Source of the DNA: Escherichia coli O127:H6 str. E2348/69
GTDB lineage: Bacteria > Pseudomonadota > Gammaproteobacteria > Enterobacterales > Enterobacteriaceae
NCBI RefSeq assembly: GCF_000026545.1
Contig: NC_011601.1
DNA: 64,000 bases
Direction: 5' to 3' (one strand)
Numbering within the stretch: position 1 is the stretch's first letter; each line of letters starts with the position of its first letter. A program made the position numbers. Shown in pieces: positions 21,001-27,000 of the stretch.

Positions 21001-24000
21001 CTCCATAAAACAAAACTCGCCGTAGCGAGTTCAGATAAAATAAATCCCCGCGAGTGCGAGGATTGTTATGTAATATTGGGTTTAATCATCTATATGTTTT
21101 GTACAGAGAGGGCAAGTATCGTTTCCACCGTACTCGTGATAATAATTTTGCACGGTATCAGTCATTTCTCGCACATTGCAGAATGGGGATTTGTCTTCAT
21201 TAGACTTATAAACCTTCATGGAATATTTGTATGCCGACTCTATATCTATACCTTCATCTACATAAACACCTTCGTGATGTCTGCATGGAGACAAGACACC
21301 GGATCTGCACAACATTGATAACGCCCAATCTTTTTGCTCAGACTCTAACTCATTGATACTCATTTATAAACTCCTTGCAATGTATGTCGTTTCAGCTAAA
21401 CGGTATCAGCAATGTTTATGTAAAGAAACAGTAAGATAATACTCAACCCGATGTTTGAGTACGGCCATCATCTGACACTACAGACTCTGGCATCGCTGTG
21501 AAGACGACGCGAAATTCAGCATTTTCACAAGCGTTATCTTTTACAAACCCGTATTCCTGCTCATATCATTCTCCTTTGATGCGAATGCCAGCGGCGCGGA
21601 TAGATTTCCATTGTTCCCATATGCGGTTGAAGTCTGTTCCTGATAAGGTCGCGTTACGGTATCCAGTTTCGGTGCGCAATCCTTCAAGCGTCGATTTGGA
21701 AATACAAATTGAATGCATTACCCATGATTCGAACAAATCACGCTCCCGGGCTTCGCAACTTTGCTTACTCATCTCTTCGATACGTTCAGCCATCGCAGCA
21801 CACTCTTCAAAGTTACTTAATGCTTTTCGCTCCCATTCGGCGCATTGTTTTCCAAGCTCTGCAATCAGCTTGTCTTTGCCTTCCAGCTCAACTCGCAGCT
21901 TCCCTACCGTTAGCGCAATATCCTCGTTCTCCTGATCACGGCTTTTGATGTATTGCTGGTTTCTTTCCCGTTCATCCAGCAGCGCCAGCACGGTAGCTGG
22001 ACTGGCTGCGGCGATGAATTCAGCATTGGCCTGCTGTTCCATTTGGAAATCTTCATCGAAACCGCTTTCAGGATGCGCTCCTTCAATTATGCAAATGGGA
22101 ATATATCCAGCAGCCTCGCGATGAATTAGCGCATCATCACAATCAAATCGGCTCTCTCCATATTCGAGCGACCATACACCACACGTTGCTTTTTCTGCCT
22201 TGGCACGCAGTGCCTCATAGTCAATCTTGCTCACTGGTTGCCTCCTTTGCGAATCTGTTCCGCCCATTCTTCAAGGGATTTCTCCGCATATTCACCGGAC
22301 AGGCCATCAATCGGGTGCAGTTCATTAGCCAACTCTTCTTTCGCTGACAGAATCATGCGTGTAACGTCGAAAACTTCACGCAAAGACTTATTGATAAATC
22401 CGTGGTTGAAAGCAGCAGCAAGACGGCTGGCGGTATAGTTAATCCCCTCGTTGCGTGCTTCTGCACGAATTTCAGCCAGAAAAGCATCGGTAGCTGGGGT
22501 GTCTGATTGCAGAAACTTTGCGCGATAGTCATTCCACCCTCTTGCATACATGGGATTAACTTGCACTCCATCTTTTACGCAATATGCCTGCCCTCCACGG
22601 TTGATAACCTTGATTTCGTCCATAGCGCCAGACTTCAGCCCCGCATTCTCCGCTGCCAGCGCCGCGCACTTGGCCTCAGCTTCAGCAAATTTACGCACCA
22701 TATATTCAGCATTTGTTTCGTTAACCTTTAAATCACATGAGATGCATTTACCTTTCAGAAATCCATCCATCTCAATTAGTGTCATTCGTTTCATTTCTTC
22801 CCACTCCGCCACATCGCATTCAGATATTTGTTTTGATTCACTGACGGAGAAGAATTTCTCTTAAGCAATTCCTCTCTCGATGGCATTGGCTTTACGCGTT
22901 GGCGAATAATCATTTCTGCCGGAAGAATGCCGGGATTGTATGCAAGTCCTCTCATGGTAAATTCCTCAGTCATTACTGATAGCGCCATAGCGTGAGCGGT
23001 AATTACGCAGGCGCGGGTCAATTTCAGGGAAGTGTGTATATGCGGCTTTGCGGAATGGTCGTATTGATGTCTGGTAAATTCGCTCTCGTTCTTCTTTCTC
23101 TGCAAGCCATATACAGTGGCGAAATTCCTTTTCCTCTTTCGTTTCCTGCGGTAGCGACATTATCCGGTCGTAGTTTTTCCTGAATTTATCCAGCACCTCC
23201 GATACGGAATTGCCGGAACAGCGGCGCGGGTCATCCGCACCATACTGAGGCGCTGGCATGATTTTCTCCTGATTAAATTGCGTGAATAGCGTGACGAGGG
23301 AAGGGGAGAGTTACTGGTGCAAAGGGTATATCGTCGTCAAAATCCATCGGAGGTTCGTTGTGTTGTGCTGGTGATGATTGCTGCTGTGGCTTCTGTGATT
23401 GCCTGCTGGCTGCTTGTTGTTTGCTGTCGCCAATGCCGCCAAGCATTTGCATCACGCCATTAATTCCGACATGAACCTCGGTTGTGTAACGGTCTTGCCC
23501 TGACTGGTCTTTCCACTTTCTGGTTCTCAGCATTCCCTCGAAATAAATCTGATCACCTTTTTTCACATACTGCCCCACGACCTCAGCCAGTTTCCCGGAT
23601 ACAGCAACACGATGCCATTCAGTCAATTCCTTTTGCTCGCCAGTATTTTTATCTCGCCATTGTTCTGACGTGGCTATTGTCAGGTTAGCGAACGCTGTTC
23701 CTGATGGTGAGTATCGAACTTCCGGGTCTTGTCCTACCCGACCAAGGATAATCACCTTATTTACGCCTCTGCTTGCCATTTATGCTGCCTGTTTTAGTTC
23801 GTTAACTCTGATGTTCATTACCTGAACACATTTAGCCTGCGCCTCCTCGTTGCCAGCCATTAATTGCCAGTCACGCTGATAACGCTCGATGAGTTTTTTC
23901 TTGTCAGTTTCTGTCGCTGCATAATCGCTGAAGTCTTTCAGGATTTGTTCGCAGTCAACCGATGGAGATTTCTGGTTGGTATTTTCTGGTGATGGTTTGT

Positions 24001-27000
24001 TATCTGATGCTGGGATTGCCCATCCCGGCAGTGATGGAGGTAGCCAGTAAAATCCTGTTCCATCCTTCAGTTTTGCCCTGTGCCACCCCTGCTTTTTATC
24101 GAGAGATGTTTGTGCGAAACCTTCCTCAAGGTTATACAGATACCGACCGATTCCCCACTGAACGGCAGCGCGCTTCATTGCACCGGAACGACCGCCTTTG
24201 ACAGCTTCTACCTGCGTGTTTTCAGCAGCATCCCATTTGGTTACCCATTCGGAATCAATCCTGATTGATATGCCGCATTCAACGCCTCCGTTGTTGGGAA
24301 TATCGCGGTATTCATTGCGCCATCCTGCTTTGCCGCAAACATCGTCCAGACGTTTCATGATTGCCCGGTTCGTGACATAAGCCAGCACCATAGCCCACAC
24401 CTTGCCATCGCGTGTTTTACCGCTTTGCTGTATTCGCCATTCGATATCTTCAGGGCTGAATGGCTCATCGAATTTGTTCAAATCCATAATTCACCTCAGA
24501 ATGGACACGGCCCAAGGAAATAACGCTGATTTAATACTTCGACTCGGGACAAATTAAGGCATACCCGCATTCCTTCGCGGTCGCCATTATGGCGATACCA
24601 GAGAGCTTTCTGCGTGTACATGCGTCTCTGTAACTTGCTCTCCTTCACTGTGGTTGCAAGTGACATGAATATCTCCTTCGTTACCGATTAATTCTTTCAT
24701 CTGACGAATGAATTCTTCGTCTGAGCAGTTATCTGTAAAACTCATTTCCTGCGATACCACGGAAGGTTGATAGCTGATTTCATCGCTTTATTTGCTTCAA
24801 GCCACATTTTGGAATCACCAATAAATCTGGCTATTACTGCTTTGTTCTGTGCAGCACGAAGCATCTGGTGATTGATGGCTATTTCATTGCGCATAACGCC
24901 TCCAGTTGTTTCTTTGCTGCTCTGATTAATTGTTTAACTCGGCGTGATAATTCAGATTCGTGCGGGTAGAAAGCGGACATGACGCCGCTACCCGCGAGCT
25001 GAAAGTGCATCATGGGTAACTCCTTATATTTGATTGCATAACGAAAACGCCTCGAGTGAAGCGTTATTGGTATGCGGTAAAGCCGCACTCAGGCGGCCTT
25101 GATAGTCATATCATCTGAATCAAATATTCCTGATGTATCGATATCGGTAATTCTTATTCCTTCACTACCATCCATTGGAGGCCATCCTTCCTGACCATTT
25201 CCATCATCCCAGTCGAACTCACAAACAACACCATATGCATTTAAGTCTTTCGAAATTGCTATAAGCAGAGCATGTTGCGCCAGCATGATTAATACAGCAT
25301 TTAATACAGAGCCGTGTTTATTGAGTCGGTATTCAGAGTCTGACCAGAAATTATTAATCTGGTGAAGTTTTTCCTCTGTCATTACGTCATGGTCGATTTC
25401 AATTTCTATTGATGCTTTCCAGTCGTAATCAATGATGTATTTTTTGATGTTTGACATCTATTCATATCCTCATAGATAAAAAATCGCCCTCACATTAGAG
25501 GGCAAAGAAGATTTCCAATAATCAGAACAAGTCGGCTCCTGTTTAGTTACGAGCGACATTGCTCCGTGTATTCACTCGTTGGAATGAATACACAGTGCTT
25601 ATTCGTACTAATAAAACACCCAATTTTCTGTTTCTTGGTTGTGTCCAAAGTTATATTCAATATCTGGTGTTGATGTATCAATATTCTTCATCCCATCAAC
25701 AAGAGTTGATACAACAGCCAAATCTTGTTTGATTCTCATCAAATGGTATTTCTTTCGGCGCAATAAACTTTCAATGGCAAGTTTCTTCGTCGGGAATGCA
25801 AAAGATCTTTCTGCATTTTTTGCTACTTTCTTAATTGCATATCTATTTCTCCTTTGTTTCCATTCCTGTAACCACTGATTTGGTGCTGGTTTAAAATTAA
25901 CAATCCAATGCGCAGGAACCAACCATGCATAATGCTCTGTCTGATGAAAAGCTATATATTGAAGTGCGAATATTTTGATCCCATCTTCTTCAACTGTCGC
26001 CTGGAATCTCCAGAAAACAGGCATTCCATCATGTTCAGTTTCTGATTCAGGAAAAGGTACGCTCCATGATTTTGTCATATCTCACCTCAAATAAGTGGTT
26101 TGCTGCCTAATTTCATTTTCTGGCGACCAACACAAGTCATCTTGCTGTCAGTTGTTTGGATTTCCGGTAGCCTGCCGCGTAAAGAGCTACGTTCGGAAGA
26201 CAAGTTGAGCCTTCATATTTTCTGGTCAACGTTGTCAGTGTTATTACTTCTGCTCTCATTGCTGGTTTGCGCTTGCATTGCAAGACCACTCGAGAGGGGG
26301 TTGGTCTGTGTAGCTTGTCGGAGCTAATCGCCTCCTGACTTTGCAGGTTTGCGCGACGAGCTCTACGACGAGAAGCTGAGGTGCCTTTAAATTCTGTTTT
26401 TCTGGACATAGATTCCTCCCGAATAAACTTTGGTGATGCAATCTCGAAGCTCCTCCTGAGACGGTTGCTTCGGCATTGCATCCCACAGCTCATGTGGTTG
26501 GGTGATCTGGCTTTTCAGCCACGTAGTCGAGAGTTCGACGTTGTTTAAAGAGCCTGCCAGTCTGTTCCGTTTGGCTTCCAGCGTCCTGCTGACGGTTAAA
26601 TAGTACGATATGTACTTTATTGGGTCAATACGATTTGTTATAAAATAGGGTGATTTTTTATAACACTTTGTATTTAATAGTGTTGTTTTTTAGCGTGGGT
26701 GTATCGCCTCGGCGATGTAAGGAGAGATCAGAATTGCGTGGTTTAGTGAGTTGTATCTATTTATTTTTCAATAAATACATTTGGTTATGTGTCTTTAGGT
26801 GGGGGCGTGAGGCAAAGAAAACCCGGCGCTGAGGCCGGGGTATGCATTTATGGTTTTTTTTGGTCGTGCTTTGCTAGGGCTTTATGAGTTTTCTTAATGC
26901 TGCTTCTAACTTTCTGAATTTTTTCTTGGGAAAGTTTTATGTTTTCAGGGGCTGTTCCAGTGTTAGAAATCATTACATTGCGAACAGATCTCCCTACGGT

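Follow-up and report, generated by a model that had tools for sequence, protein, structure and literature searches.

In the window analysed here, a stretch of 64,000 nucleotides from the chromosome of Escherichia coli O127:H6 str. E2348/69 (NC_011601.1), the early-left (PL) operon of a lambda-like prophage very probably carries an intact lambdoid recombination module of the HK75 type in the place of exo-bet-gam. The module comprises three open reading frames (ORFs), all on the minus strand, which encode a single-strand annealing protein of 235 residues (23780..24487), a 168-residue protein that binds single-stranded DNA (SSB; 23273..23779) and the 97-residue anti-RecBCD protein 2, Abc2 (22966..23259). 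An earlier reading of the same DNA (the original prediction) had placed three ORFs within 22966-24487, and we found all of them there, each with profile matches far above chance level. Downstream of abc2 lies an ORF of 54 residues with a DUF2737 domain (22791..22955, minus strand), a homologue of P22 orf56. We observed directly the families to which the proteins belong, the order of their genes and the near-identity of the module to that of phage HK75.

Over its 1.8 kilobases (kb), the module aligns with HK75 in one piece at 96.7% identity; the two share their four genes, with order and spacing unchanged, and an identical SSB protein. In a survey published in 2025, which covered 314 enterobacterial lambdoid phages and classed annealing proteins by their strand-annealing domains (strand-annealing protein, SAP), 13 functional types of recombination module were distinguished; the prototype of class C (anti-RecBCD+, SSB+, nuclease-, SAP+; 27 phages) is HK75 (PMC12315714, Table 1). 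The same combination is present in the window: an anti-RecBCD protein, an SSB and an annealing protein in an early-left operon, with no nuclease. Packing is tight, the annealing-protein gene ending at 23780 and ssb starting at 23779, and the spacer between ssb and abc2 is only 13 nucleotides long (23260-23272, with AGGAG ahead of abc2), which therefore leaves no space for a nuclease gene. Some match to the module was found in 1,106 complete E. coli genomes and the whole module (at least 80% of it) in 362 of 5,426 (about 7%), under the same names given by the Prokaryotic Genome Annotation Pipeline (PGAP). In E2348/69 these names are 'Rad52/Rad22 family DNA repair protein', 'single-stranded DNA-binding protein' and 'phage anti-RecBCD protein'. 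The module is thus already known: its type is published, its prototype is 96.7% identical, its PGAP names are correct, and it is present in roughly 7% of complete E. coli genomes.

Lambda Exo, Bet and Gam gave no tblastn match in the whole 64-kb window at E<=1e-3, which bears out the earlier claim that exo-bet-gam has been replaced, and lambda nucleotide homology is lacking between 21991 and 25037, where the module sits. In tblastn comparisons, the identity to lambda was 100% for O, 98% for P, 71% for cI (residues 26-237) and 75% for Int; at the DNA level, homology to lambda covers int-xis-ea8.5 (84%), ea10 (98%), the 3' half of cI (93%) and O-P-ren (98.5%) as well as Q and tail genes. The prophage is therefore a genuine module-level mosaic, with a non-Red module in the PL operon of a phage that has lambda replication genes. 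The lambda/P22 mosaic of the original prediction is real, but the description 'P22-like' holds only for abc2 with the DUF2737 ORF, which form one P22-homologous DNA block (22813-23269, 84% nucleotide identity), and for the last 171 nucleotides of the annealing-protein gene (23780-23950, 78%). The ssb gene splits these two P22-similar blocks, and P22 Abc1 and Arf had no tblastn match anywhere in the window. The nearest relatives of the module are those of HK75, mEp235, Sf6, epsilon34 and ES18 rather than that of P22.

A Rad52/Sak-type core in the annealing protein

The family profile PF04098 (Rad52_Rad22) matches the 235-residue protein with 91.4 bits (gathering score 20.3; E 7e-26), residues 4-136 aligning with positions 7-153 of the 153 in the model, and all 120 best homologues, of 5,596 matches, carry the same domain. 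For PF04404 (ERF), on which P22 Erf itself scores 157 bits, no match to the annealing protein was obtained even at E<=10. Likewise, a tblastn search with residues 1-130 of P22 Erf over the whole window gave no match, and in a BLASTP comparison with P22 Erf only residues 157-235 aligned, with Erf 134-205 (65% identity over 79 residues, E 6e-31). The original prediction of an Erf-type annealing protein, which was to stand or fall with profile searches, is contradicted by them: the core is Rad52_Rad22 by profile and has no ERF match. What remains of the resemblance to Erf is confined to the last 79 residues and does not extend to the annealing core. An hhalign comparison of Rad52-like and ERF core profiles returned a probability of 0.04%, but this null result comes from shallow profiles (effective sequence number, Neff, 1.6) and does not count against the published superfamily-level relationship of the two kinds of core.

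In the AlphaFold2 (AF2) model of the protein (mean predicted local distance difference test score, pLDDT, 82.6), the annealing core spans residues 1-125 (24113..24487, minus strand) with the order beta-beta-alpha-beta-beta-beta-alpha. It resembles the structures of Sak, Mgm101 and RAD52, and the beta-beta-beta-alpha arrangement of the Rad52-type fold is predicted within it. The core is followed by a three-stranded WW-like segment (residues 126-160, GWHRAKLKDGTGFYWLPPSLPGWAIP; 24008..24112, minus strand), with strands at 126-128, 136-139 and 145-149 and pLDDT values of 84-93. A disordered linker (residues 161-175; 23963..24007, minus strand; pLDDT <50), variable in length and sequence in the alignment, then leads to a C-terminal three-helix domain (residues 176-235; 23783..23962, minus strand; helices 179-192, 196-209 and 214-234) that is common to this protein and P22 Erf. 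Hence the annealing protein is a chimera of a Rad52/Sak-type core and a C-terminal domain that is also found on P22 Erf. As a member of its family, it would be presumed to form rings and to anneal single-stranded DNA (ssDNA).

Within the WW-like segment, W148, P151, P154, W156 and P159 are near-invariant across 32 homologues. The segment resembles a WW domain in that it has two Trp 22 residues apart and a Pro three residues after the second, and its match to the PRP40 WW domain is weak (E 0.09). As a separate observation, a type I-E CRISPR (clustered regularly interspaced short palindromic repeats) array in E. coli JNE151685 includes a spacer, flanked by CGGTTTATCCCCGCTGGCGCGGGGAACAC repeats, that perfectly matches the annealing-protein gene at positions 24308-24340 of the window (L217, 601-632).

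A portable C-terminal domain

A profile of the C-terminal domain, searched against 1.84 billion representative proteins, found 51 proteins. A Pfam scan of ten full-length matches revealed six ERF cores, two RecT cores and two apparent artefacts; the RecT-core proteins match the profile more weakly (E 5e-7 and 1.6e-4), and a further match, P0028, belongs to the Rad52-type family. The domain is therefore portable, occurring on ERF, RecT and Rad52 cores, and not specific to ERF. The two apparent artefacts look frameshifted or fused: in P0150 part of a D12 adenine methyltransferase is joined to an Erf-type C-terminal domain, and in P0141 such a domain stands behind an out-of-frame N-terminus. Both probably stem from gene calling or assembly and are not new architectures. 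A word-indexed protein search with the 62-residue C-terminal domain alone returned 15 short fragments and no domain architectures.

The domain is exchanged even within the Rad52-type family, where the C-terminus is near-identical to that of P22 Erf in some close homologues and much more divergent in others. According to Poteete's work, the C-terminal domain of Erf is reportedly dispensable for ring formation and DNA binding and needed in vivo. The distinction between core and C-terminus matters for the choice of annealing proteins and their cognate SSBs in recombineering, since C-terminal parts of this kind are presumed to determine partner specificity. The portable domain is a modest lead.

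An internal acidic tip in the phage SSB

The protein encoded by ssb is matched by PF00436 (125 bits, residues 6-104) and by TIGR00621 (167 bits; cut-off 54). Its identity is 71% to E. coli SSB and 100% to the SSB proteins encoded by HK75 and mEp235. In canonical SSBs a DDDIPF tip forms the extreme C-terminus and ends in a free Phe carboxylate. Here, the acidic tip motif MDFDDDIPF is internal (residues 145-153; 23321..23347, minus strand) and is followed by an extension of 15 residues (154-168; 23276..23320, minus strand), as is evident from both the sequence and the alignment. This is a departure from canonical SSBs and not from the oligonucleotide/oligosaccharide-binding (OB) fold family. A dedicated SSB with an acidic tail, as originally predicted, is indeed encoded, but the acidic motif does not end the protein.

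With the tail as query, 100 phage records were obtained at E<=1e-3, and most of the matches listed reach its last residue; the phages infect Escherichia, Salmonella, Vibrio, Klebsiella, Cronobacter, Proteus, Serratia and Hafnia. Related extensions are ...IPFAPVGLQYGRNLLHVI in Vibrio phiV039C, ...IPFAPIGLMHPTHAIFSI in Hafnia Pocitis76 and ...IPFSCVGLQYGKHRIYAL in mEp554, and another, ...IPFAPIGLPYGRNFIHCI, is found on a 406-residue protein of the Klebsiella myovirus KB57 (lytic, Vequintavirinae), so that the extension is carried by this protein as well as by ordinary OB-fold SSBs. The consensus of the 15-residue peptide reads AP-[IV]-[GT]-L-[PQ]-[FY]-x-R-[HN]-x-[IL]-[HY]-x-[ILV]-COOH. Viral contigs with DDDIPFAP amount to at least 120 loci, with extensions of the 15-residue type, APLHHLAGA, APEWR and others, and the 15-residue type accounts for 70 of the 120 loci listed. 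'AP...' extensions of all types make up about one quarter of the viral FDDDIPF tails in a sample of 120 contigs among the matches listed, which is redundant and not random; 33 of these were 'AP...' loci used before, while from the other 87, which were new, came 80 tails that end at the Phe and 8 other continuations.

The exact 15-residue peptide of the window SSB is encoded by six nucleotide variants, and Leu5, Ile/Leu12, His/Tyr13 and the final hydrophobic residue of the extension are kept across 18 variants. We rejected the idea that canonical-tail SSBs hide an extension behind their stop codon, as would be left by read-through or a recent nonsense mutation, since none of 79 loci had such a remnant. 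In the viral-contig sample, Abc2 is encoded beside 40 of 70 extended-tail SSBs and none of the 79 canonical-tail SSBs; as a single lineage makes up most of the sample, we do not take this association as evidence of a functional link.

Recognition of SSB by ExoI, RecQ, PriA and chi depends in part on the free carboxylate of its last Phe, and an internal tip should therefore change the set of partners. Whether the 15-residue peptide beyond DDDIPF is a distinct functional element is nevertheless doubtful, and we put this forward only tentatively. If it were, capping of the Phe carboxylate could keep the phage SSB from recruiting host nucleases and helicases (ExoI, RecQ, PriA); the extension could also steer the SSB towards partners encoded by the phage, or serve as a hydrophobic degron at the C-terminus. 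We found no description of the extension in the literature, including full-text searches with peptide strings, although the coverage of such searches is incomplete and the result is absence of evidence only. Phage Bas52 encodes a protein that has two OB folds and an FDDDIPF motif; it sets off the DRT10 defence and possibly competes with ExoI, and the motif is treated there as a C-terminal tip (bioRxiv 10.64898/2026.04.29.721553). The capped tip is a small, testable lead on the ways in which phages may shield their ssDNA intermediates from the SSB interactome of the host or from defences that monitor it.

Abc2 and the leftward operon

The 97-residue protein is matched over its full length (residues 1-97 of 97) by PF11043 (Anti-RecBCD_p2; 208 bits, cut-off 25) and by phrog_656 ('abc2 anti-RecBCD'; E 3.5e-54), and 89 of its 97 residues (92%) are identical to P22 Abc2, in full agreement with the Abc2-like protein of the original prediction. 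It also matches the corresponding chain of PDB entry 8b1t, which was solved in complex with RecBCD (E 8e-57), and Pro68, the PpiB site, is kept in an IRPFRK context. Abc2 leaves the helicase activity of RecBCD largely intact, and its Pro68 engages the host prolyl isomerase PpiB; it has been proposed to convert RecBCD into a resection engine for the phage recombinase, and the phages that encode it apparently lack an exonuclease of their own (PMC9836394). The DUF2737 ORF, annotated by PGAP and 74% identical to P22 orf56, is co-inherited with abc2.

In the position of P22 arf, two overlapping small ORFs lie in different frames of the minus strand at 24496-24666 (56 residues) and 24587-24760 (57 residues). 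The 56-residue ORF matches phrog_1723, labelled 'recombinase' (E 9e-36), and the small ORFs at 24496-24760 do not resemble P22 Arf. The annotation of mEp235 includes both of them and that of HK75 one, and PGAP calls neither in E2348/69. Further upstream follow kil (PF06301), cIII (PF08134) and a DUF2528 gene; downstream of the module is an Ead/Ea22-like gene and, further on, an excisionase gene and a lambda-like integrase gene. A probable PL promoter, with the promoter-like sequence TTGACC-17-TACTAT, is located at 26600..26628 on the minus strand and is the presumed driver of the leftward operon. The adjoining DNA matches the PL/nutL region of P22 and the boxA region of mEp235, and both features fit a leftward operon driven from a predicted PL. 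No minus-strand terminator-like sites were found inside the module, and an Rfam scan of 19000-30000 revealed no RNA family.

Comparison with known recombination modules

HK75 differs from the prophage in the flanks of the module, with HK022-type immunity and Nun in HK75 and lambda O/P and a partly lambda-like cI here. DNA identity over the module is 96% for mEp235 and mEpX2 and 85-95%, in pieces, for Sf6, epsilon34, g341c and ES18. The modules of ES18, epsilon34, Sf6 and mEp235 encode the same annealing protein, SSB and Abc2 at 89-96% nucleotide identity, but have an extra nuclease gene between ssb and abc2, where the window has 13 nucleotides only. In mEp235 and epsilon34 the extra gene encodes a 182-residue Rv2179c/DnaQ-like 3'-5' exonuclease, and in Sf6 and ES18 it is annotated as an endonuclease gene (HNH in ES18 according to PMC12315714). 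The presence or absence of a nuclease gene at this site is what separates the published ES18 and HK75 module types.

With arf-erf-abc1-abc2 of P22, the module has in common the operon position after kil, the identity of abc2 (92%), orf56/DUF2737 (74%) and the C-terminal domain of the annealing protein (65%), and a strategy in which RecBCD would be hijacked rather than a phage nuclease encoded. It differs from P22 in its Rad52_Rad22 instead of ERF core and in the absence of arf and abc1, an SSB occupying the position of abc1. The hkaM-sak4-ssb-abc2 module of HK620 is similarly composed of a small ORF, an annealing protein, a cognate SSB and Abc2, but its annealing protein is Sak4, a RecA/Rad51-like ATPase and not Rad52-like, and its SSB, a distant type, has NDYPPF at its end and is not reported to bear an extension (PMC5928155). 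This SSB stimulates recombineering by the annealing protein via its last six residues (PMC5928155).

Lambda Red occupies the same slot between kil/cIII and the ea region, and RecA-independent single-strand annealing would likewise be the end result. Lambda Beta, too, has a separate C-terminal fragment with structures of its own (PDB 7UJL, 6M9K), and SSB binds Beta (PMC12315714). Unlike lambda Red, the module in the window would modify RecBCD instead of blocking it and leave resection to the host, and it carries an SSB of its own.

A possible mechanism and alternative explanations

Leftward early transcription from PL would express the annealing protein, SSB, Abc2 and the DUF2737 ORF together. 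Judging by its 92% identity to P22 Abc2, the Abc2 protein of the prophage would bind RecC of host RecBCD and abolish both the Chi response and RecA loading. RecBCD modified in this way would remain a helicase and 5'-nuclease and yield 3' single-stranded tails, and the module would therefore need no nuclease of its own. The single strands may then be coated by the phage SSB, the host SSB or both, and the Rad52/Sak-type protein, by analogy with its relatives, would oligomerise on the ssDNA and anneal complementary strands without RecA. The C-terminal three-helix domain might act as an adaptor, most likely linking the core to the SSB tail and/or to Abc2-modified RecBCD. Such a role is suggested because RecT proteins recognise SSB by its last 7 residues (bioRxiv 10.1101/2020.04.14.041095), SSB binds Beta, and P22 Erf has been proposed to be loaded by Abc2-modified RecBCD (PMC9836394).

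Several points weigh against a working module of this design. From the known structures of SSB with its partners, an internal tip should weaken the canonical tip-mediated contacts. When the C-terminal domain, a linker and the SSB tail were modelled as one AF2 fusion (paired alignment, no contact map), the helices reached pLDDT values of 80-89 and the SSB tail 40-51, with no confident docking. Near-identical C-terminal domains adjoin SSBs with canonical as well as with extended tails, so that no co-variation between the two is apparent. In HK620, abc2 adds nothing to oligonucleotide recombineering with Sak4 (PMC5928155), and a contribution of Abc2 is therefore expected only for double-stranded ends. 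The SSBs of Sf6 and ES18 are described as unstudied (PMC12315714). Finally, PGAP marks the tape-measure gene (~48810-51865) and the tail-tip J gene (~54256-57970) as frameshifted, as it does an early-left gene at 26387-26609; because of the damage to the tape-measure and J genes, the prophage may be defective and the module, although intact, rarely used.

These frameshifts would also be expected if the genes were an idle remnant, intact in a decaying prophage or retained by the host like recET of Rac, and not a working phage recombination system, and the effector genes nleB2, nleC and nleD give the host a reason to keep the prophage. We nevertheless consider this very unlikely, given that all three ORFs are full length, that the SSB and the module DNA are 100% and 96.7% identical, respectively, to those of a viable phage, HK75, and that the module is compact and the PL region upstream of it intact; in addition, relatives differ in the SSB tail by synonymous changes only, which shows that purifying selection is still at work in the lineage. 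It is unlikely, too, that the genes are mere neighbours, Abc2 serving chiefly to protect linear phage DNA and the SSB acting chiefly in phage replication or as a decoy of the host SSB interactome, with the Rad52-type protein as the only recombinase. The tightly packed order of annealing protein, SSB, an optional nuclease and Abc2 recurs in HK75, mEp235, Sf6, epsilon34 and ES18, Abc2 was found beside extended-tail but not canonical-tail SSBs in the viral-contig sample (40/70 against 0/79, a contrast inflated by shared ancestry), and Abc2-bearing phages are typically without an exonuclease of their own (PMC9836394). The result with HK620 abc2 does speak for such a division of labour, as do the Abc2 homologues that stand alone in many E. 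coli genomes (1,106 with some match against 362 with the whole module), the extended-tail SSB-like proteins of lytic myoviruses, with no annealing-protein gene annotated within the 5 kb inspected, and the SSB-like phage protein with an FDDDIPF motif, which triggers DRT10 and has a part in the ssDNA metabolism of the host (bioRxiv 10.64898/2026.04.29.721553).

A P22-type module with an Erf-family annealing protein is the least credible alternative, although several labels point to it. PHROG 1097, 'Erf-like ssDNA annealing protein', matches the annealing protein at 433 bits, and several older GenBank records name its homologues 'erf', while the last 79 residues and abc2 are 65% and 92% identical to their P22 counterparts. 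These names are labels and not family tests, and they mask the Rad52/Sak-type core. Against them stand the missing PF04404 match at E<=10, compared with 157 bits for P22 Erf, the failure of Erf 1-130 to find a tblastn match, the core hhalign probability of 0.04%, the match of the core to PF04098 and to the Sak, Mgm101 and RAD52 structures, and the absence of P22 abc1 and arf. For the core, the Erf reading is already refuted as far as family membership goes.

The prophage and its surroundings

The sequence agrees at 100% identity with the chromosome of enteropathogenic E. coli O127:H6 E2348/69, and the element is a lambdoid prophage next to torS, with nleB2, nleC and nleD at its far end. The torS gene itself (16679-19422) is a frameshifted pseudogene according to PGAP. 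At the distal end (~60400-64000), the type III secretion effector genes comprise a gene for a DUF1076 protein, nleB2, nleC, a fragment of nleH, a fragment of an IS256 transposase gene and nleD. The immunity region (26848-28592) is itself a mosaic, in which the C-terminal part of cI is lambda-like and the N-terminus differs, and the place of lambda rexAB, between the PL region and cI, is taken by a BRO-family gene.

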